Shown one piece after another: positions 1 to 22,870 of a DNA stretch of 32,000 bases; position 1 is the stretch's first letter, and each line of letters begins with the position of its first letter. Source of the DNA: Nonlabens ponticola (GTDB lineage: Bacteria > Bacteroidota > Bacteroidia > Flavobacteriales > Flavobacteriaceae). Under the pieces are notes generated by a model that saw only the letters and a list, made by a program, of their open reading frames with translations, did no database searches and was not told the origin of the DNA. The stretch is taken from the NCBI RefSeq assembly GCF_003966335.1, contig NZ_CP034549.1, forward strand, positions 1,770,001 to 1,802,000. The letters are read 5' to 3'. Position numbers and translations under genes: made by a program.

Positions 1-34
1 TTTTAGCTATTTGATATAATTCTTTTAAATTCAT
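1..34 (-). CDS. N-terminal fragment of the next cassette ORF (MNLKELYQIAK...), runs off the window
   Basis: ATG at 34-32 on the minus strand, 26 nt downstream of repeat R1. Same position relative to the repeat as the other cassette ORFs. Only 11 codons are visible. Confidence 0.3.
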   Translation of the reverse strand, partial: MNLKELYQIAK

Positions 35-60
35 ATTGTCTTTGGTTTGTCAAATTGCAC

Positions 61-188
61 ACAACGGTCTCGGCTATGAGTAGTTGCGTGGGTTAGCCTT
101 GTTTTCTCAAATGTACCCAACCCGTAGAAAATTTCGTAGAAATTTTTGGATGACCACAAACCGAGCAATTGTGTATAGCCCGTGTTGT
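61..188 (-). repeat. attC-like repeat R1 (128 bp)
   Basis: ACAAC (61-65) ... GTTGT (184-188). Arms GGCTATGAGTAGTTGC / GCAATTGTGTATAGCC. Inner hairpin AAAATTTC-GTA-GAAATTTT around 127-145. Confidence 0.85.
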
Positions 189-199
189 AAAACGTTTAT

Positions 200-802
200 T
201 TAGTAGCAATGAAGCGTTCGATGTTCCTCTTCTTCGTGATAATTTATTTCGCCACTAATAGCGTCGATTAGTAGTATTTCATCCTTTGAATAACATTTCT
301 CCTCGTAAAGCGTGTTGAAAACTTTCCATTCATATTTGTCAGTATGAATATTCCACTCCAATCTCATTGTTATAGGCGATACAGCTTTCTTTAATTTTAT
401 TTTCGATACGATGTTTTCGACTTGTTTTTTGGTCAGAAAATTTGAGTTTTCATTTTTGAGCAAATATTCCGGTATTCGCTCATCAAAATACATATCAATA
501 AATTTCAATGAGGTATCAAATTCCATATAAACTCCAAGATGTACATTTTCGAACGTGAAATTTGGATGGTTTAAATCATATAAAACTTCATATCTATCAA
601 AAGGCGAAGAAATCACATCTAAGCTATCAGTTTTGGCTAGCCGAGACTCTTTATCTAAACTGAAGTATTCAATTAAATGTTTTCCGAAATGGGCATTTAA
701 TACACTATCTGCTTTCACTAAAATTTGAGAGGCAGTATGATTTTGACCATTGCCATGGTAAGCCATTGAAACAAAAAAGAAAAATGTAATTAAAGGTTTC
801 AA
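200..802 (-). CDS. Cassette ORF: exported protein of unknown function, possible PepSY-like C-terminal region
   Basis: 200-aa ORF. TTG start 13 nt from R2. N-terminal hydrophobic signal-like segment KPLITFFFFVSMAY. C-terminal pattern LTKKQVENIV...YEWKV...LLIDAISGEI resembles PepSY domains. TAA stop 11 nt from R1. Confidence 0.6.
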   Translation of the reverse strand: MKPLITFFFFVSMAYHGNGQNHTASQILVKADSVLNAHFGKHLIEYFSLDKESRLAKTDSLDVISSPFDRYEVLYDLNHPNFTFENVHLGVYMEFDTSLKFIDMYFDERIPEYLLKNENSNFLTKKQVENIVSKIKLKKAVSPITMRLEWNIHTDKYEWKVFNTLYEEKCYSKDEILLIDAISGEINYHEEEEHRTLHCY

Positions 803-815
803 TTCTAAATGTTTT

Positions 816-942
816 ACAACGGTCTCAGCTATGAGTAGTTGCGTGGTTTAGCACTTAACTTTGCAAGTACACACCTAACTGAAAATCCGCGAGGATTTTC
901 AGAAGTAGGCGAGAACCAGCAATTACTTATAGCCATTGTTGT
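816..942 (-). repeat. attC-like repeat R2 (127 bp)
   Basis: ACAAC (816-820) ... GTTGT (938-942). Arms AGCTATGAGTAGTTGC / GCAATTACTTATAGCC. Inner hairpin GAAAATCC-GCGA-GGATTTTC at 881-900. Confidence 0.85.
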
Positions 943-951
943 ACACAGTAT

Positions 952-1734
952 TTATTTACTTAATTCTATTTGAAATTTTGTCGCATTAAATGCTGCTTGC
1001 AAACCTCTTAAATTTGTTTCAGATTTATTTTGTTCAAATAATTCAGCCAAGTATTCAGCTTGTTTGGTCACATTATCATTCTCCTTTTTAAATATTTGAT
1101 ATTTTAAAAGAATCAAATTCGCCATGATTTTATCTGAAATAGTTATATCACCTTGGTTTAGGTATTCCTTTATTGTACTTCCTATCTCGGAATCGTTTTC
1201 AGATAGTTCATCGAATAAGTAAGCATTAGCCAAGTCAGATTTATTCATAGTTGAGTAATCGTTTTGGTCAGACATATCTTTTCGGTAAGTCATTTTGTTG
1301 CCATTTAGAAAATACCATCTGGTGTAAGAATCATTTTCCATTTTGATTTCTTTTTCAAAAGCTTTTTTCTTTACAGTCCAATTTGTGAAAGCAATCAAAA
1401 GTTCAGTTCCGTCATCTTTCTTTAATATGGTAAATCGAATCAAGTAATTTCTTTTCCCTGGTTTTTCAATTTCGATGTCTAATTTATTTTCTACAGAAAC
1501 ATATTTTTTCAATGCTTTTAGAACTGATGAAACATCTTCAGGACTTGCTTCAGGAAATAAGTTTTCTCTTAAAAACAAATCAATGTATAAGTAATGAGTT
1601 AAATAAAAATCATCCATTTTCAGATAATTCGCCTCTGTCAAATGTTCGGTTTTGATATTGATTTTGTCTGATTGAGAATATCCAAAATTTGTGAATATTG
1701 CTAAAAGTAAAAGTGTGATTATTTTTCTGTTCAT
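952..1734 (-). CDS. Cassette ORF: exported protein of unknown function
   Basis: 260-aa ORF with ATG start. Signal-like N-terminus MNRKIITLLLLAIFTNFGYSQ. TAA stop 9 nt from R2. Confidence 0.65.
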   Translation of the reverse strand: MNRKIITLLLLAIFTNFGYSQSDKINIKTEHLTEANYLKMDDFYLTHYLYIDLFLRENLFPEASPEDVSSVLKALKKYVSVENKLDIEIEKPGKRNYLIRFTILKKDDGTELLIAFTNWTVKKKAFEKEIKMENDSYTRWYFLNGNKMTYRKDMSDQNDYSTMNKSDLANAYLFDELSENDSEIGSTIKEYLNQGDITISDKIMANLILLKYQIFKKENDNVTKQAEYLAELFEQNKSETNLRGLQAAFNATKFQIELSK

Positions 1735-1754
1735 TCTGTTGGGTTATATTGTGT

Positions 1755-1881
1755 ACAACGGTCTCGGCTATGAGTAGTTGCGTGGTTTAGTACTTAACTT
1801 TGCAAGTACACACCAAGTTGGAAATTCCGCAGGAATTTCAAAAGTAGGCGAGTAGAAGCAATTACTTATAGCCATTGTTGT
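1755..1881 (-). repeat. attC-like repeat R3 (127 bp)
   Basis: ACAAC (1755-1759) ... GTTGT (1877-1881). Arms GGCTATGAGTAGTTGC / GCAATTACTTATAGCC. Inner hairpin GAAATTCC-GCA-GGAATTTC at 1821-1839. Confidence 0.85.
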
Positions 1882-1891
1882 ATGCTGGCTT

Positions 1892-3388
1892 TTAAAGTCT
1901 CATCATTACCTCCGTTAATTTATTTTTTCTAATTTTCCATTGAAATTCTCTTAACTCCTCTATTTCAATGTTGCCATCTTTCGCTTTTAAAGTTTCAATG
2001 AAATCTCTTACCGTTTTGTCATTCCTTTGCCTTAATATGCAATGGTAAGTTAGTCCAACAAAGAAATATCCATCTTCTTTAGCTCTTTCAATAAATTCGA
2101 CTTTGTGGTCAGCTAGATCTACAACTTTACCATTAATTTCAGCGTACCCATTTTGATATTCACTGTATGATATGTGATGCTCATCATCAACAATTGCAGT
2201 ATGAAATGTCTCTTCTCCTTCAACAATAAATGGTTCTGACTTATTATGATGAACTAAAATGAAGTCATTAAAAACACTGTTGTCATAGAATACCCAAATT
2301 TCTTTTATTGAGTATTCTGAATCCCAAAATTTCCAGGTAGCTAACCCTTTTCTTGTTAGTGTAAAATCAATATTTCCAGAACCATCGTGCCACCACAGTT
2401 TATTATCAAATAGTTCTTCATTATCCTTAAAGGTTTGGAAAAGACTATCTATTCGTTCTAAATCATTGCTATGAACAAAGCCCCAGTTATTTTTTGGAAA
2501 ATTACTACGAACAACTCTATTAAAGTCGTACATATATTCGAAAATATCTTTTTCTCTACTATCCTTTATATATTGTTTGATGTCTGCAATGCTTTGGAAT
2601 CTTTGGCTTGGTTCATTTTTTAAACAATTTTCAATAACTCCATTAAACATTCTCTCATCTTCTATTTTGAGAGAAATTCTTTTTCTTCCCGTGCCTCTGT
2701 GTGTATTTCCTGTAGCAAACCATTGTAGAATTTGGCCAATTGCATATATATCCATAGTCGGATGTGAATCTTTGCCGGCTATTTCTTGTTCTGGTGCAGA
2801 AAAAAGTCTATTACCAATTCTTTCATTCTTGACAGTTTTTGCTCGGATTTCAAAAATTTCAGGATTGTAACTGGCGATTCCAAAATCTGCTAAAACATAT
2901 TTTCCATCTTTAACTAAAATGTTTTCTGGTTTTAAGTCTCGATGAATAATGCCTTGACTATGTATTTCATCTACTGCATCCAATAAAAAATTAAGTAGTT
3001 TAATGAAATTTTGACCCTTGTTTTCTGATTCATCAAGTTTTAATGAACTTTCATATTCCTTCATCATTATCACTGGAATAATCGCAGAACCCTCTTCATC
3101 CTCGAGGTTTAGCAAATCGTAATCCACATATTTAACGATGAAATTCGTTTTCTCAATAGTTACTATGTTGAAATATTCTGCTAAAAAACGCTCGGTCTTT
3201 GTTTTTAGAGATTTTCCAGAGGTATTACTCAAAAGAAATTTGAAAGCAAATGTCTTTCCGAAAATTTCACCTTTGTATACAATTCCGTTGCCACCTTCAC
3301 CAATTTTATCAATCAAATTTATTTCTCCAACAGAAAGCTGAATCTTATTTTTATTGTCTTTTAAATATCTTGAAAATCGTTCTTTCAT
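1892..3388 (-). CDS. Cassette ORF: Ser/Thr protein kinase domain fused to a ~200-aa C-terminal domain of unknown function
   Basis: 498-aa ORF. Glycine loop GEGGNG plus lysine in FAFKF. Catalytic loop HRDLKPENILV. DFG (LADFGIA). APE-like SAPE. No signal peptide. Confidence 0.85.
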   Translation of the reverse strand: MKERFSRYLKDNKNKIQLSVGEINLIDKIGEGGNGIVYKGEIFGKTFAFKFLLSNTSGKSLKTKTERFLAEYFNIVTIEKTNFIVKYVDYDLLNLEDEEGSAIIPVIMMKEYESSLKLDESENKGQNFIKLLNFLLDAVDEIHSQGIIHRDLKPENILVKDGKYVLADFGIASYNPEIFEIRAKTVKNERIGNRLFSAPEQEIAGKDSHPTMDIYAIGQILQWFATGNTHRGTGRKRISLKIEDERMFNGVIENCLKNEPSQRFQSIADIKQYIKDSREKDIFEYMYDFNRVVRSNFPKNNWGFVHSNDLERIDSLFQTFKDNEELFDNKLWWHDGSGNIDFTLTRKGLATWKFWDSEYSIKEIWVFYDNSVFNDFILVHHNKSEPFIVEGEETFHTAIVDDEHHISYSEYQNGYAEINGKVVDLADHKVEFIERAKEDGYFFVGLTYHCILRQRNDKTVRDFIETLKAKDGNIEIEELREFQWKIRKNKLTEVMMRL

Positions 3389-3408
3389 TTTGTTATTTCA
3401 GCTTGCAT

Positions 3409-3536
3409 ACAACGGTTATGTATAAATATAGTTGCGGGTTTGCGTGCGAAGAATTTCCGAAGGAAATTTAGATGTAGCAAATACGCAACTGCCTTTATTT
3501 TAGCACTAAACCGCAATTATTTTTATACGGTGTTGT
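3409..3536 (-). repeat. attC-like repeat R4 (128 bp, divergent sequence, same structure)
   Basis: ACAAC (3409-3413) ... GTTGT (3532-3536). Arms GTATAAATATAGTTGC / GCAATTATTTTTATAC still pair. Inner hairpin AATTTCC-GAA-GGAAATT at 3452-3468. Confidence 0.8.
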
Positions 3537-3545
3537 GCATAGTTT

Positions 3546-3935
3546 TTATTCACATACTTTATTTTTTTCAATCCACGGATTAATAAATTTCCTTTCAGTT
3601 CCGAGTATTGTTTTCATTTCGGGTTCGTCGAAAATTAGATAGAAATTTTTGTCTTTTTCCACGTATTTAAATTTCAATTCAGTACAATATTTTCCAGTGC
3701 CGTGATTTACGAGCATACTTATAATTCCATCTTCAATTTTTATGTCTTTCACGGATTCCACCATAATAAAATTAACTTTTATATCAGAAGGAATTTCTTT
3801 TTCACTATAATTTCCAAGGTCATTCATTTCAATCATTTCGTCAACGATTTCTTGAATCCATTTGTCAATAGATTTTTCTTGGTTGATTTGGATGTTTGAA
3901 ATTCCAATCAAAAATGTCAGTAAAATTATTTTCAT
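3546..3935 (-). CDS. Cassette ORF: small exported protein of unknown function
   Basis: 129-aa ORF with ATG start. Signal-like N-terminus MKIILLTFLIGISNIQ. TAA stop 9 nt from R4. Confidence 0.6.
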   Translation of the reverse strand: MKIILLTFLIGISNIQINQEKSIDKWIQEIVDEMIEMNDLGNYSEKEIPSDIKVNFIMVESVKDIKIEDGIISMLVNHGTGKYCTELKFKYVEKDKNFYLIFDEPEMKTILGTERKFINPWIEKNKVCE

Positions 3936-3956
3936 ATTCTGTTTCTCAAATTATGC

Positions 3957-4083
3957 ACAACGGTTTGGGCTATGAACAGTTGCGTGGGTTAGCACGGACT
4001 TCTACAAGTAAACTGCAAGCTGAAAATTCCGCAGGAATTTTCAGGATAAGCCTGTAATAGCAATTGTTTATAGCCATTGTTGT
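3957..4083 (-). repeat. attC-like repeat R5 (127 bp)
   Basis: ACAAC (3957-3961) ... GTTGT (4079-4083). Arms GGCTATGAACAGTTGC / GCAATTGTTTATAGCC. Inner hairpin GAAAATTCC-GCA-GGAATTTTC within 4021-4043. Confidence 0.85.
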
Positions 4084-4093
4084 AAAACGTTTT

Positions 4094-4690
4094 TTACTCC
4101 AAATATTCTACATCAGAACGAACTTTTTCACGCCATTTATTTCCGTATTTTTCGTCCATTAGTTCAAATATCCGTTCGTTATATTGTTCAATACATTCCG
4201 AAATTGGTGGTTCACAACCAAAATCAAAATATTTAACTTTAAATCTTTTCTCAAATCGATTGCCGGAAGGTGAGTTTGCAATTGGTGCAATTGAACCAAC
4301 AAGTAATAAATTTGCCGTTCCGTTTTTCCAGTCAGATTCTGCACGTTCAGCATTATATTCACAATCCGCTTTTAATTCAAACGTCACGTTATTAATTCCG
4401 TTTTTCGTTTCGACGTCAAACTTTTGTTTTCAGTAACCGAATGCAGAGATCTCTATAATATATTTTTGATTAGGTTCAAGATATTCAATTCGGAAATTAC
4501 CTAAACTGTCAGCCATAATTAATGGTTGTTTAGTAATCAATTCTTGAACATAAATATCCGAAATTGGTTTTTCTCCTGAAACTCCGCTAATCACCTTTCC
4601 TACGATTTCAGTTTGTCCGTATATAATTCCGCAAACTAATATTAAAATCAGTTTGATAATGTTTTTCTGTATGTTCAGATTTTTCTTCAA
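4094..4690 (-). pseudogene. Cassette ORF split by one in-frame TGA: N-terminal CarboxypepD_reg-like exported segment (4430-4690) plus a C-terminal part (4094-4387)
   Basis: The 86-aa and 97-aa ORFs are in the same frame. 4388-4429 is 42 nt (14 sense codons, KQKFDVETKNGINN) and the only interruption is the TGA at 4432-4430. The downstream ORF has only a GTG start. There is no attC-like repeat between them. Confidence 0.5.
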
Positions 4691-4697
4691 ATGTTTT

Positions 4698-4825
4698 ACA
4701 ACGGTCTAGGCTATGCGCAGTTGCGCGGTTCATCCTTATTTTTCCAAATATATTCAAACCGTAGAAAATTCCGCAGGAATTTTCGGATGAGCAATGACAG
4801 AGCAATTGCGTATAGCCATTGTTGT
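4698..4825 (-). repeat. attC-like repeat R6 (128 bp)
   Basis: ACAAC (4698-4702) ... GTTGT (4821-4825). Arms GGCTATGCGCAGTTGC / GCAATTGCGTATAGCC. Inner hairpin GAAAATTCC-GCA-GGAATTTTC at 4764-4784. Confidence 0.85.
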
Positions 4826-4834
4826 AAAACGTTA

Positions 4835-5599
4835 TTATTTATAAACTCTTTCATAAATTCCTATTTCGCAACCGCTACATGTGCTCAATATAGAATTTCT
4901 CTTTTTAATATGTTTAATTAGTATTTCATCCAACTTGCTTAGTTCGAAACTGGTGTTCTCGTCTAAATATTCCAAAGCGTCTACTCCGTAAGTTTGTAAT
5001 TCTGGATTAAATGATTTTAACCATTCTCTAAACTTTTTCGCATTCCTTTTTTTATCGAATTTGAAATCATTATATCTTGGTATTTTGTAAGAAATAGGCG
5101 CATATCCACAAAAGTATCCGTAAATATGATAAGATAATACCTGACTGATAAAGTCTTCTTTTTTTAAGTTGGTTTGGTAGAATACATTATGATTACTTAA
5201 ATATTCGTCAAACGTAGTTTCTTCAAAGTAAAATTCGGTGTCTTTTCGATAAGTATCAAAACTTATTAAACCTACTATGATATTATTTTTTTTGAACGTA
5301 TGAACATTATACGATTTATTTTTTATCTGTTTGTTATCAGGATAATTAATGTTTACTTCATATACTGATTCGGTTAAACCGTAGTCGATATCTCTAGCAT
5401 ATAGGAATCCGCCAAAACTATATTTAGGATTAACCTCTCTTATGGTTTTGAAATCAATCAACTTTAAAGTGTCCAAATCAAAATTTTGGTATTCTTTAAA
5501 ATAGTTCTGAATTTCAGCTACCGCGTTCATTTCCGCTTGACTTTGAGAAAAAGACAATAATGGAATAAGCAATAAAATAAAAAAGTTTAGTGTCCTCAA
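4835..5599 (-). CDS. First cassette ORF: exported protein of unknown function
   Basis: 254-aa ORF. TTG start (no in-frame ATG before a stop). Signal-like N-terminus RTLNFFILLLIPLLSFSQSQ. TAA stop 9 nt from R6. Confidence 0.6.
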   Translation of the reverse strand: MRTLNFFILLLIPLLSFSQSQAEMNAVAEIQNYFKEYQNFDLDTLKLIDFKTIREVNPKYSFGGFLYARDIDYGLTESVYEVNINYPDNKQIKNKSYNVHTFKKNNIIVGLISFDTYRKDTEFYFEETTFDEYLSNHNVFYQTNLKKEDFISQVLSYHIYGYFCGYAPISYKIPRYNDFKFDKKRNAKKFREWLKSFNPELQTYGVDALEYLDENTSFELSKLDEILIKHIKKRNSILSTCSGCEIGIYERVYK

Positions 5600-5616
5600 A
5601 GGTGTTTATTAAAATG

Positions 5617-5632
5617 TTTTACAACGGTTATA
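5617..5632 (-). other. attI-like half-site (left arm of the repeat only)
   Basis: TTTTACAACGGTTATA matches the flank, ACAAC core and spacer of the repeats (AAATGTTTTACAACGG is shared with R2 and R6). The sequence then becomes unique, with no right arm. It lies between the first cassette and the recombinase. Confidence 0.7.
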
Positions 5633-5636
5633 TAAA

Positions 5637-5667
5637 CAAACCTAAGCCATTTATTACCAGTTTACAA
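5637..5667 (-). promoter_or_regulatory. Candidate Pc-like promoter reading into the cassette array
   Basis: The minus strand reads ATTG (5668-5665), a 20-nt spacer, then TAGGTTTG (5644-5637). This resembles the Bacteroidetes -33 TTTG / -7 TAnnTTTG consensus and is positioned just upstream of the half-site. Motif match only. Confidence 0.25.
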
Positions 5668-5674
5668 TACTATA

Positions 5675-5699
5675 TGGTAGGTATATGCAAACCTTTTGA
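5675..5699 (+). repeat. Direct repeat DR-a (TGGTAGGTATATGCAAACCTTTTGA)
   Basis: Matches DR-b at 23 positions with two 1-nt indels, 48 bp upstream of DR-b. Contains a 4-codon mini-ORF, ATG CAA ACC TTT TGA. Confidence 0.7.
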
Positions 5700-5707
5700 T
5701 AGATTTG
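5700..5707 (+). promoter_or_regulatory. Candidate -7 box (TAGATTTG) for the recombinase gene
   Basis: Matches TAnnTTTG 25 nt upstream of the ATG at 5732. No convincing -33 element found. Confidence 0.2.
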
Positions 5708-5722
5708 AACATAATTCACTTT

Positions 5723-5745
5723 TGGTAGTATATGCAAACCTTTGA
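5723..5745 (+). repeat. Direct repeat DR-b (TGGTAGTATATGCAAACCTTTGA), overlaps the recombinase start codon
   Basis: Second copy of DR-a. Its ATG (5732) opens the 277-aa recombinase ORF. Confidence 0.7.
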
Positions 5746-6565
5746 CGATTTTAGGCAGTTAATGACCATTAAAAGGTATGCGCCCAACACTATTGATTCT
5801 TATCGTGGTTTACTCATTGCCTTTCAAAAATTCCTAGGGCATGATCATCCTATCGACGAGTTGCAGGATCGTCAAATAAAAGAGGCAGTAAGCGAGGTAG
5901 TCGTAGCAAAGTCTCTTGCCGTTGCCACGCAAAAGCAACTACTGTCTGCACTAAAACTCTATTTTAAAGAGATGCACAGACGCGATCTTGACTTTTATAG
6001 CGTCTATCCTAGAGTAAAGCCTAGACCTATTCCAGTGATTTTGAGCACGCAGGAAGTAGGAGCAATTTTATCGCATACCAAAAACTTGAAACATAAAGCC
6101 ATGCTAACGCTAATTTATGCGTTGGGATTACGCAGCGGCGAGCTCATCAATCTCAAAATCAGCGACATCGACAAACATCGCAAGCTGGTACACATTAAAA
6201 GTTCCAAAAACAAAAAGGATCGTATCATTCCTTTTCCTGATGGTCTGGGCGAGCTTTTAAATAAGTACTACAAGGAATACCAACCTACGGAATTCTTATT
6301 CAACGGCCAGTCCACAAATCAGTACCACGCGCAAAGCCTGCGCAAGGTGTTCCACAAATCGTGTAAGCTTGCTGGAATCAACAAGAAAGTTACACTGCAC
6401 AGTTTGCGCCACGCCTATGCCACGCACCTCATGGATGCAGGAACTGATTTGCGTGTCATTAAGGAATTGCTGGGTCACAACAGTATCAAGACAACATTGA
6501 TCTACACGCATGTAACCAATAAAACGCTTCAACACTTGCCCAATCCGCTGGATTTTATCAAATAA
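5732..6565 (+). CDS. Tyrosine site-specific recombinase, XerC/XerD-like, lacking the IntI-specific insertion
   Basis: 277 aa. N-terminal SAM-like core-binding region (YAPNTIDSYRGLL, ATQKQLLSALKLYF). Catalytic signature LGLRSGE (Arg I), HSLRHAYATH (His-x-x-Arg), LLGHNSIKTTLIYTHV (His, Tyr). About 60 aa separate KKDR from LRH. Confidence 0.9.
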   Translation: MQTFDDFRQLMTIKRYAPNTIDSYRGLLIAFQKFLGHDHPIDELQDRQIKEAVSEVVVAKSLAVATQKQLLSALKLYFKEMHRRDLDFYSVYPRVKPRPIPVILSTQEVGAILSHTKNLKHKAMLTLIYALGLRSGELINLKISDIDKHRKLVHIKSSKNKKDRIIPFPDGLGELLNKYYKEYQPTEFLFNGQSTNQYHAQSLRKVFHKSCKLAGINKKVTLHSLRHAYATHLMDAGTDLRVIKELLGHNSIKTTLIYTHVTNKTLQHLPNPLDFIK

Positions 6566-6614
6566 CTCACCGATCAAATTCATATTTGATATAAACTATT
6601 TCCACTTAATCAAA

Positions 6615-6642
6615 AAAGCCGATTCCATTAAGAATCGGCTTT
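6615..6642. terminator. Hairpin between convergent genes (probable bidirectional terminator)
   Basis: AAAGCCGATTC / GAATCGGCTTT 11-bp stem with a 6-nt loop. An A-run on the left gives a T-run for the minus-strand transcript. Confidence 0.6.
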
Positions 6643-6666
6643 GATAAATTAGAAAATAGCTATAAA

Positions 6667-7974
6667 CTATTTTTGTCGCTCGTATTTACTCATGTAGCGC
6701 TCGTATAAATCTTTTTGCCTGGTGTCCAGCGAGATGTCACGGCCGTCGATAAAGGCGCGAGTCAATTTATTGGTACGCATGTCCAACGCATTGCCCTGTG
6801 ATATGAATAGGGTAGCGCTCTTACCTTCTTCCAGCGAGCCATAATCAGCGTCTATGCCTAGGATCTTGGCAGGATTGAGCGTTATCATCATCAAGGCTTG
6901 TTCCGCATCCACGCCATGGCCAGTGAGCGTTCCTGCATAGAATGGCACGTTGCGCACCTGGTGACGCTCCATACTACCAGAATTCTCCAACGCAACGGTG
7001 ACTCCAGCATCTGCTAGGATTTTTGGAAACTTGTACGGCATGTCAAAGTCGGCGTCCTCACGTGCCGGTAAGTTATGTACACGACCTGCGAGTACGGGAA
7101 CTCCAGCGGCCGCAATGTCACCAGCTATTTCCTGTGCACCACGAGCTCCTACCAGTACTAGGTTTTTTACATTGTTAGCTTTCGCGAAAGCTAACACATC
7201 AACAATCGCCTTCTCACCAGATACATGCATGTACAAGTTTGCATTGCCGTCCAGAACACGTCGCATCGCCTCCATTTTCAAGTCCTTGTCTGCTGGATTG
7301 TCTGTAGATTTATAAGCGACCGCTTGACGCATAAAGTCGCGCAGTGCCTCAATGTCCTCATCATAATCCTTGCTAGGCTCGATAGGCCCGTAATTAGGCC
7401 ACGATCCCGATCTACGGAAGCTGGCAGGCCAGTTCACATGAATACCATCATCCATGCGCACGGCAGCATCTTCCCAGTTCCACGCGTCTAGTTGCACCAC
7501 GCTGGACTGTCCAGAGATGCGACCACCACGCGGTACCGTTTGAGCGATCAATATACCATTGGGCCTCATGGTTTCTACCACGCGAGACTCTGCATTGTAA
7601 GCAATTATACTACGTATATGCGGATTAAAAACTCCCAACTCGCGCTGGTCGTCACTGGCATTTACGGCATCAACTTCTACCAATCCTAGCGTAGTGTTGG
7701 CAGCAATAAAGCCAGGATACACGTGCATTCCTGTGGCATCAATAACCTCACCTTTGGGTGCCATTCTTACCGTGGTAGCATCTGCAATGGCGGTGACTTT
7801 CCCGTTTTCTATAACAATGACTGAATTTTCAATTACCTCGCCATTACCTATATGAGCGGTACCATTCATAATGGTGTAAGCTCCAGTCTGTGGTGCGGCT
7901 GGCATTTGTTGGGCTAGGGCAGTGGTGCCTAGCATCGCCAGTACTATATATAATATGTTTTTCATGTCTTTCAT
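6667..7974 (-). CDS. Amidohydrolase-family protein, exported (HxH motif absent)
   Basis: Start trimmed to MKDMKNILYIVLAMLGTTALAQQ (ATG at 7974; alternative at 7965). Amidohydrolase-like N-terminal beta-sandwich pattern VIENGKV...VIDATGMHVYPGF. The expected HxH position reads ANTTLG. Confidence 0.8.
   Translation of the reverse strand: MKDMKNILYIVLAMLGTTALAQQMPAAPQTGAYTIMNGTAHIGNGEVIENSVIVIENGKVTAIADATTVRMAPKGEVIDATGMHVYPGFIAANTTLGLVEVDAVNASDDQRELGVFNPHIRSIIAYNAESRVVETMRPNGILIAQTVPRGGRISGQSSVVQLDAWNWEDAAVRMDDGIHVNWPASFRRSGSWPNYGPIEPSKDYDEDIEALRDFMRQAVAYKSTDNPADKDLKMEAMRRVLDGNANLYMHVSGEKAIVDVLAFAKANNVKNLVLVGARGAQEIAGDIAAAGVPVLAGRVHNLPAREDADFDMPYKFPKILADAGVTVALENSGSMERHQVRNVPFYAGTLTGHGVDAEQALMMITLNPAKILGIDADYGSLEEGKSATLFISQGNALDMRTNKLTRAFIDGRDISLDTRQKDLYERYMSKYERQK
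7174..7195. repeat. Iterated palindrome copy 1 (core GCTTTCGCGAAAGC 7178-7191, extended to a 22-bp perfect palindrome GTTAGCTTTCGCGAAAGCTAAC)
   Basis: Read directly. Inside the 453-aa amidohydrolase, encodes LAFAKAN. Confidence 0.95.
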
Positions 7975-7975
7975 T

Positions 7976-10954
7976 TTACCAGTGTAGCGTTTCACATTCA
8001 TACAAGGTCTTGGTGGATTGTTTGGCAAGCTGCGTTTTCAAGCCTTTGTTTTTTGCCATAATCATTTCGTTTGTCAACTGTTGACGTTCCTTTTTTATGC
8101 TTTCGCGAAAGCTAACATCACGAGATTTCTCAAAGAACACAATACCATCTACCAGGGTATATTCCGGGATCGCCTTGATGTCTAGCGGATTGTGGTTCCA
8201 CAAAACGATATCTGCATCTTTACCTTCCTTGATGCTACCTACACGGTCGTCGATATGCAGCAGTTTTGCAGGATTGAGTGTGACAAACTTCCAGGCTTCT
8301 TCCTCGCTCACGCCACCGTATTTTACAGCCTTGGCAGCTTCCTGGTTCAAGCGTCGTGACATTTCTGCATCATCACTGTTAAACGCGGTAAGAACGCCTT
8401 GTGAATGCATGATGGCACCATTGTAAGGTATGGCGTCGTTCACTTCATACTTGTAAGCCCACCAGTCGCTAAAGGTTGATCCACCAGCGCCGTGTTCTCT
8501 CATCTTATCAGCCACCTTGTAACCTTCTAGAATATGCGTGAATGTGTTGAGTGTGAAACCGTATTTCTCGGCCACCTTCATCATCATGTTGATCTCGCTC
8601 TGTACATAAGAGTGGCAGGTCACATAGCGCTCGCCGTTGAGAATCTCAACCAGCGTTTCCATCTCCTCATCATAACGGAAGTTGTTATCGCCTCTAGACT
8701 TGTCATATTCCTGCGCACGTGTAAAGTAATCTTCAAAAACCTGCTCGACACCCATGCGCGTTTGCGGGAAACGTATGCCGTTCTGGTATCTGGACTGCTT
8801 CACGTTCTCACCCAGCGCAAACTTGATAAACTTAGGTGAATTGTCATAGATCATCTCCTGCGGGCTATAACCCCATTTAAGCTTGATGATCGCACTACGG
8901 CCACCAATGGGATTGGCACTACCGTGCAGCAGTTGCGAAGTCGTAACGCCACCAGCAAGATCACGGTAGATGTTGATGTCCTCGTGATCAACAACGTCCT
9001 CGATGGTAACCTCGGCAGTACTGTTATGTCCAGCCTCATTTACACCTTGATCAATGGCGATGTGCGAGTGCTCATCAATAATACCACTAGTTAGGTGCAT
9101 GCCGCTGGCATCAACCACTCTAGCGCCACCAGCGCTCAGGTTTTTACCTACTTTAGAAATCTTACCGTTCTTGACCAGTACATCGGTATTCTCAAGAATA
9201 CCAGCATCTTCATTAGTCCATACGGTCGCGTTTTTAAATAGGATGGTTTCTGCTTTGAGTTTTGTTTTAGAGCCGTAAGCCACATTAGGATAGGTCATGT
9301 TGCCTAGATCGGTGATCATTTCTTGATCGGCTTCATCCTCTTTATCGTCATCGTCTTTTTCATCTTCTGCTTTCTTATCGGCTTGTTTTCTAGCGACAAA
9401 GGATCTTTCAATCCCATTAGGTAAGTAAACCTTTCCTTTCAACATCTGCGGATTACTCTCGGTCAATTTCATGCTCCAGCGCGTGTAGGTTTTATCATCA
9501 GCGTCCTTTTGGGATGTCGTGATGGTAATCCAGTCGTCGTTGCGCACGATCTTGCTGCCTAATTTTGTGCTGTCCAGCATGACTTTAACCGTCTTTGCAT
9601 CGCCGCTGATAGCCAATTCATATGTGTCGCCGTTTACTATGGCTTCATAAGTTCCATCCACGTTGAGTAAACCACGATCTTTCAACACATGCTTGGATCC
9701 TTGAACCCAATTTTCATAAACATCAGTGTCTTTTTCAAAAAGCTCGCCACTGGTAACGATAAAGTTTGCGTGCTTTCCTTTTTCCAAGGTTCCAATAGAA
9801 GAACTCAAGTTAAGCAATGCTGCTGGTGTGGTTGTTAGTGCAGCTAGTGCTTGATCTGCGGTCAATCCATATTGCATGGCACGCATCAATTTTGCATGAA
9901 GCTCGTCAGGTGATTTTAAACCATGTGTAGTAATACTGTATTTCACGCCAGCATCGGCCAATTTTTTAGGATTAGCAGGTGCTTGTTTCCACTCACGCAT
10001 GTCAGCGAGATTCACGTACCATTCTTGGTAAGGGTCAGTCACGTCATAAGCATCTGGGAAATTGATCGGTAAAATTAGTTGTGCATTGGTAGCTTTAATG
10101 GCATCCACCATCTCTAGCGCATCTTCACCACCTACAATGACAAATTGCTTGCCTACGCGATCACCGACCTTATCTGCTCTTAATACATTTTTCTTATTTC
10201 CAGCTTCTATGTATTGAACCAGGTTCTTATTGGCATTCAATGCCTCTAGTGAGCGGTCTTTGGTTTTGGAATTGCCAGCGGCATACCAGTCTGCATCAAA
10301 GTGTGATTGACGTAACAAAGCCATAGTTCCCATAAGCGAAGTAGGATAGGACTGGTTCGTCTGTCTACTACGGTCAAATGAGAAAAACTGACCACTCTTA
10401 TTATTCAGGATACGTTGCGAGTCGTCACCATTATTATTTAGCGCGACAACCATACCAGTACCACGAGCGATACCGTCGTGTAAGTGCGTTTGTACCACAC
10501 CATAACCAGCTTTCATCATGCTTTCGGCTTTCTTTGAGTCGTACTCGTAAAAGTCGATGGCATCCTGCTCGGCACGTATGTGGTCGTTCCAGTAAAAACC
10601 TTGTCGACCTTCATCGTATTGTTGACCGCGTGACTCATTCTTAGGAACCGTCATTCCAAAGTCTGCATAGGTCTCAATGAACGATGGGTAAATAAAAGTG
10701 CCGGTAGCATCTTCTACTACGGCATTTTTAGGAATCTTAATGTTGCGACCTACGTCCACAATTTTGCCGTCCTTAATCAGGATCGAGGCGTTTTCTAACT
10801 TCTTTCCCGGACTCGTGATGATAGTCGCACCAGTCAAGGCACGCATCGACTTACTCACTGCCGATATATCATCATTATTGGGAAAGTATTCTTGGCCTTG
10901 CGCGGTCATCGCCGCCATCGCCAGAATGGAAAAAAGTATTTTTTTCATATACAT
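7976..10954 (-). CDS. Large two-module amidohydrolase-family protein, exported
   Basis: 992 aa with signal-like N-terminus (MKKILFSILAMAAMTAQGQ; ATG at 10954 or 10948). N-terminal module IKDGKIVDVG...VEDATGTFIYPSF lacks HxH. C-terminal module VKNGKISKVG...VDASGMHLTSGIIDEHSHIA has it. Confidence 0.85.
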   Translation of the reverse strand: MYMKKILFSILAMAAMTAQGQEYFPNNDDISAVSKSMRALTGATIITSPGKKLENASILIKDGKIVDVGRNIKIPKNAVVEDATGTFIYPSFIETYADFGMTVPKNESRGQQYDEGRQGFYWNDHIRAEQDAIDFYEYDSKKAESMMKAGYGVVQTHLHDGIARGTGMVVALNNNGDDSQRILNNKSGQFFSFDRSRQTNQSYPTSLMGTMALLRQSHFDADWYAAGNSKTKDRSLEALNANKNLVQYIEAGNKKNVLRADKVGDRVGKQFVIVGGEDALEMVDAIKATNAQLILPINFPDAYDVTDPYQEWYVNLADMREWKQAPANPKKLADAGVKYSITTHGLKSPDELHAKLMRAMQYGLTADQALAALTTTPAALLNLSSSIGTLEKGKHANFIVTSGELFEKDTDVYENWVQGSKHVLKDRGLLNVDGTYEAIVNGDTYELAISGDAKTVKVMLDSTKLGSKIVRNDDWITITTSQKDADDKTYTRWSMKLTESNPQMLKGKVYLPNGIERSFVARKQADKKAEDEKDDDDKEDEADQEMITDLGNMTYPNVAYGSKTKLKAETILFKNATVWTNEDAGILENTDVLVKNGKISKVGKNLSAGGARVVDASGMHLTSGIIDEHSHIAIDQGVNEAGHNSTAEVTIEDVVDHEDINIYRDLAGGVTTSQLLHGSANPIGGRSAIIKLKWGYSPQEMIYDNSPKFIKFALGENVKQSRYQNGIRFPQTRMGVEQVFEDYFTRAQEYDKSRGDNNFRYDEEMETLVEILNGERYVTCHSYVQSEINMMMKVAEKYGFTLNTFTHILEGYKVADKMREHGAGGSTFSDWWAYKYEVNDAIPYNGAIMHSQGVLTAFNSDDAEMSRRLNQEAAKAVKYGGVSEEEAWKFVTLNPAKLLHIDDRVGSIKEGKDADIVLWNHNPLDIKAIPEYTLVDGIVFFEKSRDVSFRESIKKERQQLTNEMIMAKNKGLKTQLAKQSTKTLYECETLHW
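8099..8112. repeat. Iterated palindrome copy 2 (GCTTTCGCGAAAGC)
   Basis: Read directly. Inside the 992-aa amidohydrolase in a different frame (SFRES). Confidence 0.95.
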
Positions 10955-16660: not shown

Positions 16661-18217
16661 TTACAATCCACCTACCGCAGCCTCAGCACAACGTTCACCG
16701 TCCATGGCTGCACTGACAATACCACCGGCGTAGCCACCACCTTCACCGCACGGATATAGATTTTTTATTTGTGGATGTTCCAGCGTTTCAGTGCGCGGTA
16801 TTTTTACGGGAGATGATGTTCTAGATTCTACACCTACTATGTTGGCTTCATTGGTATTGTAGCCATGCATTTTGTGACCAAAAGCTGCAAAGCCTTTTCG
16901 CAATCTACTGCCTATGAGTTTGGGTAATAAACTATGTAACGGCGCACTATGCAATCCAGGCTGATAAGAGGTTTCATTGAGAGTATCGGACAGTTTACCA
17001 TCAACAAAATCCGTCAATCGCTGTGCTGGAGCCGTTTGTGATTTACCGCCTGCGGTAAAAGAAAGTTGTTCTAGATTTTTTTGAAATTCCAATCCAGCCA
17101 GCGCGCCATGTTTTTCAAATGATTTGAGATCGGTATCGGCATTGATTTCGACCACTATGCCAGAGTTGGCAAACTTATTATTGCGTCGCGATGGCGACAT
17201 ACCATTGACTACGACTTCGCCAGATTGGGTGGCAGCAGGAACGATAAAACCACCAGGACACATACAAAAAGAATAGACGCCGCGGCCTTTTATTTGCTGT
17301 ACCAGACTGTAAGACGCAGCTGGCAACAACTCGCTACGCTCGCCGTCACAACTGTATTGAATAGAATCAATGATATGTTGCGGATGCTCAACACGCACGC
17401 CCATGGCAAATGATTTGGCTTCAATCGTCACTTTTTTGCGATGCAGTAATTCAAAAATATCTCTAGCGGAATGGCCTGTTGCTAGTATCACTTTATTTAC
17501 GGCGACTTCATCTTGATCATTTAATATTAATGAGGTTATCGCATCATTTCTTAAAATAAAATCAGTGACTCTCGTCTCAAAATGGATCTCACCACCATAC
17601 TGTAAGATGGTTTCCCGTATGCGCTGGATGATTTTGGGTAGCTTGTTCGTACCTATATGCGGATGCGCATCTACTAGAATTTCGTTAGTCGCGCCATGAA
17701 AAACCAAGTTTTCAAAAATGCGACGCACATCGCCACGTTTCAAACTGCGCGTGTATAATTTACCATCGCTGTATGTTCCTGCGCCACCTTCGCCAAAACA
17801 ATAGTTGGAATCCTCGTCAACCACATGATCCTGATTGATGGCCTTGATATCGCGACGTCGTTTTTGCACATCCTTGCCACGTTCATAAACTACTGGTTTG
17901 TAGCCTAATTCCATACAACGCAATGCTGCATACATTCCAGCTGGGCCAAAGCCGATGATATGAACTTTTGACGCCTTAGAAACGTCTTGATAATCAAATT
18001 TATATTCGGATTCTTGAGGTAGAGGCTCGTTTATGTAAACGGCTATCTTGTAATTAAAAACCACAATCTTTTTGCGTGCATCAATAGACTTACGCAATAC
18101 CACGATGCCGTTGATATTTGACACATCTTCACCTAGGTGTAAAGCAGCTCTTCTTGTAAGATCAGGATCTTGCTCTTCTTCAGGCAAACTTACTCGCAGC
18201 TGTATCTCTTTAATCAT
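16661..18217 (-). CDS. FAD/NAD(P)-dependent oxidoreductase (COG2509-like)
   Basis: 518 aa. Dinucleotide-binding motif IIGFGPAGMYAAL. C-terminal GEGGGYAGGIVSAAMDG typical of this flavoprotein family. Confidence 0.8.
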   Translation of the reverse strand: MIKEIQLRVSLPEEEQDPDLTRRAALHLGEDVSNINGIVVLRKSIDARKKIVVFNYKIAVYINEPLPQESEYKFDYQDVSKASKVHIIGFGPAGMYAALRCMELGYKPVVYERGKDVQKRRRDIKAINQDHVVDEDSNYCFGEGGAGTYSDGKLYTRSLKRGDVRRIFENLVFHGATNEILVDAHPHIGTNKLPKIIQRIRETILQYGGEIHFETRVTDFILRNDAITSLILNDQDEVAVNKVILATGHSARDIFELLHRKKVTIEAKSFAMGVRVEHPQHIIDSIQYSCDGERSELLPAASYSLVQQIKGRGVYSFCMCPGGFIVPAATQSGEVVVNGMSPSRRNNKFANSGIVVEINADTDLKSFEKHGALAGLEFQKNLEQLSFTAGGKSQTAPAQRLTDFVDGKLSDTLNETSYQPGLHSAPLHSLLPKLIGSRLRKGFAAFGHKMHGYNTNEANIVGVESRTSSPVKIPRTETLEHPQIKNLYPCGEGGGYAGGIVSAAMDGERCAEAAVGGL

Positions 18218-20143: not shown

Positions 20144-22870
20144 TTGACCGAATACCCAAAAGATATCCAATTCAAGTATCCGTGGAGAAAATATCAAGAA
20201 AAAGTGCTGCGTGAACTTAATCATCACTTAAGGGATAAACACCTACATATTATCGCACCTCCAGGATCAGGTAAGACTGTTTTGGGAATTGAAGTTGCTA
20301 TAAGATTAAACAAACCTACCCTGATTCTTGGACCAACTTTGGCCATACGTAACCAATGGATACAACGGTTTTGTGAGCTTTTTCTACAAACCAATGTCAC
20401 GCCAGATTGGATTTCGCGTGATATTAGAAATCCTGATTTTCTAACCGTGGTCACTTATCAAGGTTTACACGCAGCGTGCAATAATTGGAATCTTATAGAA
20501 GAAGAGTTTGAGGAAGAAGAGGATGCTGATGTTGAAGAAACACCATCAAGATCCTCTCGATCTGAACTTTCCAAGATTGTAGGATTGCTCCAATCTAAAA
20601 ACATTGGGACTATTGTGGTAGACGAGGCACATCACCTGAAAAAAGAATGGTGGCATACTTTGATACAGATTAAGTCTGAATTAGATCCAGTAATTGTTGG
20701 ACTAACAGCCACGCCACCTTATGATGTGAACTATACTCAATGGCATCGATACATAAGTTTAAATGGCCCGATTGATACCGAAATCTCAGTTCCAGAATTG
20801 GTAATTGAAGAAGACTTATGTCCGCATCAGGATTATGTCCATTTTACTATGCCTACCAAGGATGAGCGTCGTAAAATCATCAATTTCAGAACCAATGTTG
20901 GTAAACTGTATAGAGAGGTTAAGGCTGATGACACACTTGCAATAGCAGTAGAGCAGCATCCTATCTGGCAGAACCCATTGGATCATTTAGATTGGATCTA
21001 TGACAATCTTCAGTACTATTCGGCTATTTTAATATTCTTGAAATCTTTTGGTAAAGAAATACCAGAGTCACATCAAGAGGTCATCAATGACAAAAATGCT
21101 GAGATTCCCGCTTTTGATTATAGATGGGCTGAAGAATTATTGGAATTTTATCTGTTTAGGGAAGAAGAAGCCTTTCCCGATTTTATAGAACACCAAAAAA
21201 GACTGTTAAGCAGACTCAAAAGATACGGAGCTGTTGAACGTAATAAAGTCAATTTTCTATACAATAGAAATCTGGCTGGTTTGCTTACATCAAGTATTAG
21301 CAAAATTAATAGCATTCAAGAAATCGTCGATTTTGAACGTTCACATCTAGGTTGCGATTTACGCCTGGTTATTCTTTCGGATTATATCCGTAAGGAGTAT
21401 CTAATTAATGAAAATGAGAACAGTCTAGATCTAAATAAAATGGGAGTCATCCCAATTTTTGAGAAGTTGAGAAGATCTAATAGGGGTAAATCAAAAATAG
21501 GAGTTCTGACAGGTTCGATTATTATTATTCCTGACAACGCCTACGGTGCTTTACAAGCCAAAGCGTTCAAAAATGGTCTTGATGAGATCAACACAGTTAC
21601 CTTAACCTATGATAATGAATACCTAATCATAAATCGCACAGAGCAGAACAAAAATCAAATCGTGCATCTAATTACAGAACTCTTTGAAGATGGAGAAATT
21701 GAAATTCTTGTGGGTACAAAATCTTTGCTGGGTGAAGGTTGGGATGCACCGTGTATCAACACATTGATTTTGGCAACATTTGTTGGGTCCTTTGTCTTGT
21801 CTAATCAGATGCGAGGTAGAGCCATCAGGACTCAAAATCTAAACTTAGATAAAACTGCCAATATATGGCATCTAGCTTGTATAGATAGCTCATCGCCTAA
21901 TGGTGGTACTGACTTTGATCTTTTAAAAAGACGCTTTAGAGGTTTTGTAGGTGTGTCAAATAAAGAGAAAGGCGGTATAGAAAATGGCATGGATCGCTTG
22001 AATCTACCAGAATTAGTTCATCTTGAAAAGCAAGCAATACAGGCGAACCTGGAAATGTTCAAACAGGCTGGCAATAGAAAAAATCTAAAACAACGATGGG
22101 ATGATGCCTTAAAAACAGGAGTAACGCTAGTAGAGGAACTTAAATTACCGTTTCCCAATAAGACCAATTACCAAGCGGTAAAAACCATTCATCTCAATGA
22201 TACTATAACAAACTTTATCTACACGCTTATTGCAGCGATAGTAACGTTCTTCTTTGAAAATTTTTTAGGTGCTTTTAAAGATTTGTTCTTTGTAAAAACT
22301 ACTTGGCAATTTTATACCATTCTCTTAGTGCCACTGATGATTCTGATTGTGACCTTTGGCGGTAAAACACTCAAAGCCTTTAGGTTATATTTCAAATACC
22401 GAGATATTTCAAAGGACTTGCATAAAATTGGAGACGTCTTATTACGTTCTTTAATTCATGCTAACGTTATTAAATCGAGCTACTCTAGCTATAAGGTGAT
22501 TACATCGGTCAATGAGTATGGGACAGTTTATTGTCATCTAGAAGGTGGAACTACCTATGATAAGTCAACTTTCATAAATGCGCTTCAGGAGATTGTCTCA
22601 GTAGTTGATAATCCTAGATGCATCCTAATAAGGAAGAATAAACTGATGGGTTATCTGAGCCAAAAAGACTATCATGCCATTCCAGAAGTTTTGGGTCGCA
22701 ATAAGAAAACAGCGTTATTTTTTAAAGACACTTGGGAGCAATACGTGGGTGATTGTGAGTTGATCTTTACAAGAACCGTAGAAGGTAGAAAGTTTGTTCT
22801 CACGTCAAGAATGAAGTCTCTTGCATCCCAATTTGATGAAGAGGCTGAACATGTCAATATATGGAGGTAG
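20144..22870 (+). CDS. SF2 DEAH-box helicase-family protein with two predicted transmembrane helices in the C-terminal third
   Basis: 908 aa with TTG start as called. Motif I APPGSGKT, motif II VVDEAHH, motif III LTATP, motif VI QMRGRAIR. Hydrophobic segments ITNFIYTLIAAIVTFFFENFLGAF and WQFYTILLVPLMILIVTFGG (about 22204-22365). Confidence 0.8.
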   Translation: MTEYPKDIQFKYPWRKYQEKVLRELNHHLRDKHLHIIAPPGSGKTVLGIEVAIRLNKPTLILGPTLAIRNQWIQRFCELFLQTNVTPDWISRDIRNPDFLTVVTYQGLHAACNNWNLIEEEFEEEEDADVEETPSRSSRSELSKIVGLLQSKNIGTIVVDEAHHLKKEWWHTLIQIKSELDPVIVGLTATPPYDVNYTQWHRYISLNGPIDTEISVPELVIEEDLCPHQDYVHFTMPTKDERRKIINFRTNVGKLYREVKADDTLAIAVEQHPIWQNPLDHLDWIYDNLQYYSAILIFLKSFGKEIPESHQEVINDKNAEIPAFDYRWAEELLEFYLFREEEAFPDFIEHQKRLLSRLKRYGAVERNKVNFLYNRNLAGLLTSSISKINSIQEIVDFERSHLGCDLRLVILSDYIRKEYLINENENSLDLNKMGVIPIFEKLRRSNRGKSKIGVLTGSIIIIPDNAYGALQAKAFKNGLDEINTVTLTYDNEYLIINRTEQNKNQIVHLITELFEDGEIEILVGTKSLLGEGWDAPCINTLILATFVGSFVLSNQMRGRAIRTQNLNLDKTANIWHLACIDSSSPNGGTDFDLLKRRFRGFVGVSNKEKGGIENGMDRLNLPELVHLEKQAIQANLEMFKQAGNRKNLKQRWDDALKTGVTLVEELKLPFPNKTNYQAVKTIHLNDTITNFIYTLIAAIVTFFFENFLGAFKDLFFVKTTWQFYTILLVPLMILIVTFGGKTLKAFRLYFKYRDISKDLHKIGDVLLRSLIHANVIKSSYSSYKVITSVNEYGTVYCHLEGGTTYDKSTFINALQEIVSVVDNPRCILIRKNKLMGYLSQKDYHAIPEVLGRNKKTALFFKDTWEQYVGDCELIFTRTVEGRKFVLTSRMKSLASQFDEEAEHVNIWR

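Follow-up and report, generated by a model that had tools for sequence, protein, structure and literature searches.

The window analysed here, the whole 32,000-nt stretch of Nonlabens ponticola DNA from contig NZ_CP034549.1 (positions 1,770,001 to 1,802,000), begins with a run of six palindromic repeats, R1 to R6, each 127-128 nt long and all on the + strand between positions 61 and 4825 (Table 1). All the substantial open reading frames (ORFs) in 1-5600 are on the - strand, one in each interval between repeats, and the left-hand unit at R1 continues past the start of the window. At the other end, the array is followed by a lone seventh copy of the five bases that open each repeat, ACAAC, and then by a divergent gene for a tyrosine recombinase. 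This arrangement of recombinase gene, half-site and one-gene units, each with its own palindrome, is that of an integron, and our reading, which we hold with good confidence, is that an integron-like platform is seated in the chromosome here and that window 1-6565 covers its integrase-proximal end. The system works like an integron and yet fails two of the defining features of integrons, namely the I2 insertion in the integrase and the extrahelical bases on the R''-L'' arm of the recombination site. It is a widespread and, it appears, hitherto undescribed variant of the integron in Bacteroidota; we found no account of these arrays in open-access papers and bioRxiv.

Table 1. Features of the repeat array and the recombinase gene in window coordinates; bits are scores of the covariance model built from R1 to R6
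Feature	Coordinates	Strand	Remarks
attC-like site R1	61..188	+	123.8 bits; most degenerate stem; A/G mismatch and four wobbles
cassette ORF, 200 aa	200..802	-	no family match
attC-like site R2	816..942	+	119.7 bits; moves together with ORF 952-1734 as a single cassette
cassette ORF, 260 aa	952..1734	-	cassette 820-1758, 97.8% identical in GCA_001306415.1
attC-like site R3	1755..1881	+	140.5 bits
cassette ORF, 498 aa, Ser/Thr protein kinase	1892..3388	-	Pfam Pkinase and PADLOC PD-T4-6 models
attC-like site R4	3409..3536	+	93.9 bits; stem base GTATAA/TTATAC, position 7 A-T, inner hairpin displaced
cassette ORF, 129 aa	3546..3935	-	
attC-like site R5	3957..4083	+	134.8 bits
cassette gene, one frame broken by in-frame TAA	4094..4690	-	...ISAFGY-stop-KQKF...
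attC-like site R6	4698..4825	+	139 bits; site of attI-proximal cassette
first (attI-proximal) cassette ORF, 254 aa	4835..5599	-	
attI-like region	5613..5745	+	half-site TTTTACAAC followed by GGTTATATAAAC, without hairpin body
tyrosine recombinase, 277 aa, Xer/IntI-like, without IntI insertion	5732..6565	+	divergent from array

Read along the + strand, each repeat opens with ACAAC, from which a 6-nt spacer leads to a 16-nt arm; the complementary 16-nt arm comes about 75 nt later, and a 3-nt spacer then separates it from GTTGT at the end. Direct parsing bore out both the coordinates and the fold of the original prediction, i.e. a 5-bp ACAAC/GTTGT stem, a 6-nt spacer opposite a 3-nt spacer and a 16-bp stem, as well as the covariations it had listed for the internal stem (AGTA:TACT in R2 and R3, AACA:TGTT in R5, CGCA:TGCG in R6, GTATAA:TTATAC in R4). 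A G opposite T was likewise found, as claimed, at stem position 12 in all six copies and at position 7 in five of the six, the exception being the A-T pair of R4. This description of the stems was correct as far as it went but left out the blemishes of three copies: only 11 of the 16 pairs of R1 are Watson-Crick, and its stem has an A/G mismatch and two wobbles beyond the usual pair, R2 has A/C at stem position 1, and in R4 a T faces a T at position 8. When a covariance model was built from all six, it scored its own members at 94-140 bits (E 1e-20 to 1e-31) and gave zero further matches in the remaining 26 kb of the window. A known RNA family and a tRNA-linked island were ruled out by null scans, Rfam giving no family match for the repeats and the tRNA scan no match.

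To see the sites in a wider setting, metagenomes were scanned with a Nonlabens-type seed pattern in which ACAACGGT, AGTTGCG and KTGTTGT were fixed and the 3' arm was left free. The scan returned at least 120 contigs, mostly marine, and on the first 100 of these the six-copy model found 372 sites (its E-values being rough), including those of several long arrays with about ten sites or more. Covariation was then assessed on 148 distinct best related copies, where 92.1% of cells in the paired columns were paired against 82.0 +/- 0.3% in shuffled alignments, and 398 cells showed double changes against 143 +/- 8, a value that none of 500 shuffles matched; as a control, sliding the partner columns by 1-3 lowered pairing to 31-46%. 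The 16-bp L stem was 98.5% paired in these copies, 9 of its 16 pairs showing compensatory change, and a 9-bp inner hairpin in the tip was also conserved, with compensatory changes at 8 of 9 pairs. Since compensatory change is significant against shuffles, with three to four types of Watson-Crick pair at most stem positions, the claim that structure rather than sequence is conserved can be upheld, and it withstood the check proposed along with it, a covariance model to which more copies are added.

A second set of statistics, on 281 unique sites outside the window, came from a hairpin parser that scores G·T and A·C alike and orients sites solely by the asymmetry of the 6-nt and 3-nt spacers. 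Every parsed site has NNAAC...GTTNN, and stem positions other than 7 and 12 are Watson-Crick in 88-96% of the 281 sites, with three or four pair types at each. Equal arms of 16/16 were found in 344 of 624 parsed candidates, all six window copies included. This loose parser also yields false positives, e.g. at window 27050-27229, and the conclusions below on the association with a recombinase therefore rest on covariance-model matches. The sites are imperfect inverted repeats of the attC type, with AAC/GTT cores and with structure kept over sequence. By definition (PMC2727003), an attC site whose bottom strand is folded also has extrahelical bases on its R''-L'' arm; the sites described here have none, their sole asymmetry in length being that of the two spacers. 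The parallel previously drawn with the R box, spacer and L box of attC stands for the layout; it is one of functional likeness, not of membership, since the extrahelical bases are missing and the integrase is without the IntI insertion.

The two wobbles recur throughout the family, with G·T at position 7 in 223 (79%) and at position 12 in 238 (85%) of the 281 sites. In total, 655 G·T/T·G stand against 85 A·C/C·A, and as the parser is symmetric for both strands this is the strand asymmetry that had been predicted. The G:T pairs had been regarded as tolerated, a view that we would replace with one of selection. In an independent subset, 205 sites that fall outside the scan pattern, T outnumbers C opposite a 5' G by 154:4 at position 7 and by 163:1 at position 12, a preference that marks the wobbles as features selected at fixed positions and not as tolerated damage. 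When positions 7, 8 and 12 are set aside, G·T exceeds A·C only slightly (101 to 67), and this, together with the ratios at 7 and 12, led us to reject cytosine deamination, i.e. a mutational bias, as the source of the G·T pairs. The two wobbles, 5 bp apart, persist in sites that lie beside integrases about 40% identical and that have quite different stem sequences, and a third conserved wobble, T·G, is found at flank position 6 (174 of 283). Both spacers are G/T-rich; on the G·T strand, three spacer positions form only pairs of the wobble type, the first of them being G:T in 245 of 286 sites, and in 247 of 286 a G stands directly after AAC. When folded as single-stranded DNA (ssDNA), the G·T strand had the lower minimum free energy in 210 of 237 family members, by 2.7 kcal/mol on average (Wilcoxon p ~1e-33), and in the window the + strand was the more stable in five of the six copies, by 2.3-5.9 kcal/mol, in keeping with the prediction that it should fold better. 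A function as structure in the sense mRNA was considered and rejected, as the C·A mismatches fall on the sense strand. We also observed a subtype of the site in which the 7/12 wobble pair gives way to a C·A mismatch near stem position 5 combined with G·T at 12-14 (17955-18088 and 20595-20725 in locus L008, 12128-12257 and 13441-13568 in L012, and L035), and which may be a second recognition variant.

The orientation of the genes agrees with the orientation of the sites. The longest ORF of a cassette runs antisense to the G·T strand in 224 cases out of 283, and where an ORF covers at least 70% of the interval it is antisense 142 times and sense 7 times. The + strand is thus the template strand of the cassette ORFs, as had been stated, and the G·T strand is the bottom strand. 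The ends of the cassettes can be read from their flanks: the 8 nt on the 3' side of one site are complementary to the 8 nt that precede the next site at seven or more of 8 positions in 51% of 283 pairs, against 5% for the two flanks of the same site and 4% for random pairs. As the flanks pair across the cassette, it can be concluded that the cassette ends complete the R stem on circularisation, as they do in integron cassettes.

One cassette was found in two places. The product of ORF 952-1734 is identically encoded in GCA_001306415.1 (locus L168), inside an 11-site array, and window 786-1760 is 97.8% identical to L168 3394-4363 with different neighbours on both sides. In the sense of the ORF, identity starts between CG and TTGTACAC (i.e. 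between CG and TTGT), past unrelated upstream hairpins, covers the ORF and the downstream hairpin and stops directly after CCGTT, from where the window continues with GTAAAAC and L168 with ACCATAC. Since the identity spans exactly the ORF and its downstream site and the neighbours are unrelated, these two together are the mobile unit. Both breaks in homology fall within the GTT of R' boxes, as they do in integrons, and are compatible with a crossover between the G and the TT, at a resolution of about 3 nt in this single case, which came from a look-up of exact proteins. Near-identity in two genomes and in different contexts implies that the movement was recent.

The arrays keep a fixed orientation with respect to a recombinase. 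In every one of the 17 interpretable loci, the G·T strand has its 3' end towards a homologous recombinase gene, from which the ORFs read away, the taxa being Nonlabens, Aequorivita, Flagellimonas, Flavobacterium, Chitinophagales, Cyclobacteriaceae, Salibacteraceae and Draconibacterium. There are two layouts, which mirror the normal and inverted layouts of canonical integrons: the array is either upstream and divergent (the window, L004, L006, L041 and the isolate genomes L169-L172) or downstream and co-directional (L008, L010-L013, L015, L018, L040, L108). In L015 and L018 a half-site comes directly after the stop codon of the recombinase, and the R'' of the first cassette pairs with that cassette's own start. 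In the loci scanned from the four isolate genomes, all forward-orientation matches lie in one block upstream of the recombinase, and neither there nor in window 6-32 kb was any dispersal of sites independent of the recombinase seen. Several Nonlabens assemblies have contig ends about 250 nt or less from the recombinase start, which fits repeat-induced assembly breaks. In a Chitinophagales genome, extra partial tyrosine-recombinase genes, 39% identical over query residues 93-274, occur within or beside the arrays (L010 13521-14084 and 18733-19296; L011 18362-18925).

Between array and recombinase lies the putative attI. The seventh ACAAC, at 5621, has an upstream flank of the type found at the sites, has no hairpin body, and lies 106 nt ahead of the recombinase start. 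After it come three direct repeats, TATA(A/T)(A/G)CAAACCT, at 5631-5643, 5682-5694 and 5729-5741 (spacings 51 and 47 nt), the third of which overlaps the ATG of the divergent recombinase gene. Locus L004 has the same attI arrangement, with three analogous repeats at 1215, 1262 and 1308, and by analogy with DR1/DR2 of attI1 the repeats may be accessory integrase-binding or autoregulatory sites. Two divergent TAnnTTTG boxes, of the Bacteroidetes-type -7 promoter, are also present, one at 5644-5637 (-) that faces the cassettes 11 nt before the crossover and one at 5700-5707 (+) that sits 24 nt before the integrase ATG; the background of this motif in the window is about 0.6 per kb per strand. Judged by sequence, an attI half-site with ORFs reading away from the integrase is present in the window and likewise in L004, L015 and L018.

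A Nonlabens ponticola protein with 100% identity to the recombinase carries no annotation beyond 'tyrosine-type recombinase/integrase'. At E <= 1e-30 the recombinase has 1645 homologues, of which the best 120 are 236-297 aa long and are nowhere named 'integron integrase'. Its domains are Phage_integrase and SAM_4, and it falls below the cutoff of every curated model: XerA_Arch (196.6/220), XerD (184/330), XerC (171.5/335), PRK15417 (110 against 435) and the 'integron integrase' model TIGR02249 (182.5 bits against 265), the last match being split into two stretches. It is thus no XerC, XerD or XerA equivalog, and a duplex site of about 28 bp was not found with it. Aligned with VchIntIA (2A3V), query residues 7-169 correspond to chain 9-170 and 201-273 to chain 245-317, so that query 170-200 faces chain 171-244 and about 43 residues are absent where the IntI-specific insertion, the I2 helix, sits. 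The alignment to XerA (5HXY) is unbroken, and the family profile gives the same picture. The AlphaFold model (predicted local distance difference test score 82.5) matches 2A3V and 5HXY equally, with E ~1e-15, and has a predicted single helix (172-183) and a loop at the would-be insertion point. The catalytic residues R134, K159, H223, R226, H249 and Y258 are invariant in 29 homologues. Smyshlyaev et al. reported that the insertion is 'not fully conserved' in a subgroup of integron-like recombinases and described no cassette arrays (PMC8138268).

If the locus were an ordinary canonical integron, with IntI and standard attC sites and merely unannotated, that would account for the classical layout (divergent integrase, attI half-site, co-oriented cassettes with AAC...GTT sites), for the partial match to TIGR02249, for VchIntIA 2A3V being the best structural neighbour and for the G after AAC, which most attC sites share (PMC2727003). 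We consider this most unlikely in view of the sub-threshold, two-piece TIGR02249 match, the gap of about 43 residues against 2A3V where the XerA alignment is uninterrupted, the lengths and names of the closest homologues and the equal arms without extrahelical bases; moreover, an IntegronFinder 2.0 survey gave, for Bacteroidetes, only In0 elements and one Salinibacter integron (PMC9024848). The Xer-like sequence and fold of the enzyme could instead be taken to mean conventional double-stranded Xer-type recombination, as at dif or pdif, with the stems kept for another reason. Xer recombinases normally work on duplex DNA, and the pdif modules are an example of mobile modules bounded by Xer sites. 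However, there is no 11-6-11 duplex core here, ACAAC and GTTGT being about 120 bp apart and R' and L' not mutual inverted repeats, and an arm / 6-nt centre / arm order arises only in the folded form. Compensatory changes in 9 of 16 pairs and a preference for G·T over G:C lack a duplex rationale, and the sites are all in one orientation whereas pdif modules alternate, all of which makes a duplex reaction very unlikely.

A different kind of explanation would leave the recombinase out altogether. Palindromic elements of the repetitive extragenic palindrome (REP) or miniature inverted-repeat transposable element (MITE) type are common in bacteria, and uniform-size intergenic palindromes 3' of genes could be such elements, or else transcription terminators or mRNA stabilisers, which spread by themselves and are unconnected with the recombinase. 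This is just as improbable as the canonical integron, given that the remaining 26 kb of the window contain no copy, that one-per-gene, single-orientation arrays abut a recombinase in all 17 loci, that a cassette has been exchanged between genomes with breakpoints in the GTT of the sites, and that flanks pair across the cassette and not within the site; the mRNA-sense strand, with its C·A mismatches, folds worse, the stem is not followed by a T-run, and Rfam has no match. Finally, the degenerate R1, the in-frame stop in the gene at 4094-4690 and the array of L041, which adjoins only a partial recombinase gene, might be taken as signs of a fossil array, built by another, now absent integrase and with the adjacent recombinase a bystander or inactive. 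We find this barely credible when the catalytic residues are invariant, the same enzyme family is paired with the same site family in several Bacteroidota lineages and in two layouts, the direct repeats overlapping the integrase start are kept in L004, and a 97.8% identical cassette occurs in two genomes in different contexts.

The integron-like platform that we prefer has points of its own against it. The link between recombinase and sites is one of co-location and therefore correlative, the cassette in two contexts is one case only, and when 280 cassettes from the various loci were compared with one another by blastn, just 2 pairs proved homologous, too small a number to show which site moves with an ORF. 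In the folding, 26 of the 237 family members fold better on the opposite strand, as does R1 (-13.7 on the + strand, -15.4 on the - strand), and the nearest-neighbour DNA parameters are approximate for G·T. The extra spacer bases lie on the R'-L' arm, whereas the canonical extrahelical bases lie on R''-L'', so by analogy the strand preference could be argued either way. Lastly, the enzyme is without I2, a helix regarded in the field as the innovation that enabled single-strand recombination (PMC7790495).

With these reservations, a working model of the integron-like platform can be put forth. A cassette would be one unit, usually with a single ORF on the - strand, followed by an attC-like site of about 127 nt, and the + (bottom) strand of the site would fold into a hairpin that imitates a double-stranded core site. 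Its R arm would be ACAAC/GTTGT, lengthened by the cassette's own ends after circularisation, its central region would set 6 nt, on the side that is cleaved, against 3 nt on the other, and its L arm would be the 16 bp with G·T wobbles at 7 and 12, ending in a branched tip with the conserved 9-bp inner hairpin. The folded bottom strand does have an arm / 6-nt centre / arm geometry, which the duplex lacks. The enzyme would be the adjacent recombinase and its substrate single-stranded or cruciform DNA: on the folded bottom strand, one monomer would sit on the R arm and a second on the L arm, and the R-bound monomer would cleave within 5'-ACAA^C, the sole position fitting at once the attI junction, a site body distal to the ORF and the cassette breakpoints. 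Exchange of the cleaved strand with attI (5621) or with another site would then lead to insertion, excision or reordering of cassettes. That the sites of an array share a single orientation implies that a strand choice operates, and we suggest that the wobbles and the asymmetric G/T spacer take over for it the part played in canonical integrons by extrahelical bases and the I2 helix. The wobble positions are G:C and A:T in the duplex and C·A in the folded top strand; as the wobble itself exists only in the folded bottom strand, it could single out the correct strand, in its folded state, with no need of extrahelical bases.

Whether this amounts to a separate integron lineage, abundant in marine Flavobacteriia and other Bacteroidota, with a Xer-like integrase that never had or has lost I2 and with a 'wobble code' and a G/T-rich asymmetric spacer in place of extrahelical bases, seems to us evenly balanced. 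If it does, hairpin recombination and cassette arrays either predate the I2 innovation or arose twice. In the accepted view of integron biology (PMC7790495, PMC4792948), it was the I2 helix, gripping the extrahelical bases, that turned a Xer-like duplex recombinase into a hairpin recombinase. An integron logic without either of them makes the origin of integrons testable, as the system would be a living intermediate or an independent solution. It also exposes a large pool of cassettes in Bacteroidota (at least 120 mostly marine contigs and at least 372 sites), defence-like genes included, and two G·T wobbles, as a simple and mutable strand determinant, could serve the engineering of strand-specific recombination sites.

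As for what the cassettes carry, the kinase is the largest cassette product and the sole Pfam match among the cassette proteins of the window. It matches the PADLOC PD-T4-6 models of single-gene anti-phage kinases with E 6.5e-24, a similarity by which its cassette may be a defence cassette. The broken gene between R5 and R6 is either a nonsense pseudogene or two fused domains, and the C-terminal half of its product is homologous to a 134-aa cassette ORF of L004 (392-796). Two features of the L168 array, at 8219-8895 and 1-830, are a toxin-antitoxin-type cassette of Gp49 (HigB-like) and HTH_3, as in sedentary chromosomal integrons, and an insertion sequence (rve) gene at the contig end, where the array terminates. 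In Nonlabens marinus (AP014548, locus L172), one interval between sites is about 6 kb long (2514-8593) and contains five genes, among them those for a DNA methylase, a HATPase_c_3 protein and an HTH protein; this multi-gene cassette may be a restriction or defence system. The array differs in guanine plus cytosine content (31-33% in window 1-6000) from the adjoining chromosome (36-48% in 6001-32000), which opens with two large amidohydrolase-like ORFs at 6667-10954. Set against a value of 40-48% for the chromosome that flanks it, this composition speaks for the integron-like reading.

Several known systems bear comparison with these arrays. REP and bacterial interspersed mosaic elements (BIME) with their RAYT transposases, and the ends of IS200/IS605, are also imperfect palindromes recognised as single-stranded hairpins. 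Unlike the Nonlabens sites, they are served by HUH (Y1) enzymes, are dispersed in the genome and do not bound exchangeable cassettes; the Nonlabens locus has no HUH gene, and its copies are confined to arrays beside a tyrosine recombinase. With Xer/dif and the pdif modules of Acinetobacter plasmids it shares a two-domain tyrosine recombinase of about 280 aa, a 6-nt centre between arms and sites that bound modular genes. However, dif and pdif are 28-bp duplex sites, with pdif in alternating orientation, whereas the Nonlabens sites are 127-nt palindromes in a single orientation with covarying stems, and the recombinase stays below the XerC, XerD and XerA equivalog cutoffs. In the case of the phage CTX-phi, XerC/XerD reportedly acts on the folded single-stranded attP(+) hairpin, work ascribed to Val and colleagues in 2005. 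The likeness here is in an I2-less Xer-type enzyme, an ssDNA hairpin that mimics a duplex core, the exchange of one strand and the completion of the event by replication, and from this precedent the chemistry proposed above would need no I2 helix. The differences are that in CTX-phi a phage genome integrates at dif, with no cassette array, dedicated integrase and attI, and that its hairpin mimics dif by sequence and does not belong to a family of structure-conserved, sequence-variable sites.

The closest likeness in organisation is to canonical integrons, such as the V. cholerae superintegron with VchIntIA and its V. cholerae repeats (VCRs) of about 125 nt, which are similar in length to the Nonlabens sites, or class 1 integrons with IntI1 and attI1. 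Both have an integrase next to an attI half-site with direct repeats, and cassettes that all face one way, carry a single ORF in most cases and end in an imperfect palindrome, which has AAC...GTT cores and an order of R box, unpaired spacer, L box and variable branched tip. They also have in common the cassette boundaries in the GTT of R', the G after AAC, the better folding of the bottom strand, the divergent and co-directional layouts, and toxin-antitoxin and defence-like cassettes. What sets the Nonlabens system apart is an integrase without the ~43-aa IntI insertion and no closer to IntI than to XerA or XerD, sites that have no extrahelical bases and carry their 3 extra nt in the spacer, on the R'-L' arm, two G·T pairs kept 5 bp apart in the L stem together with a T·G in the extended R stem, and a host clade, the Bacteroidota, that has been reported to be nearly free of integrons.

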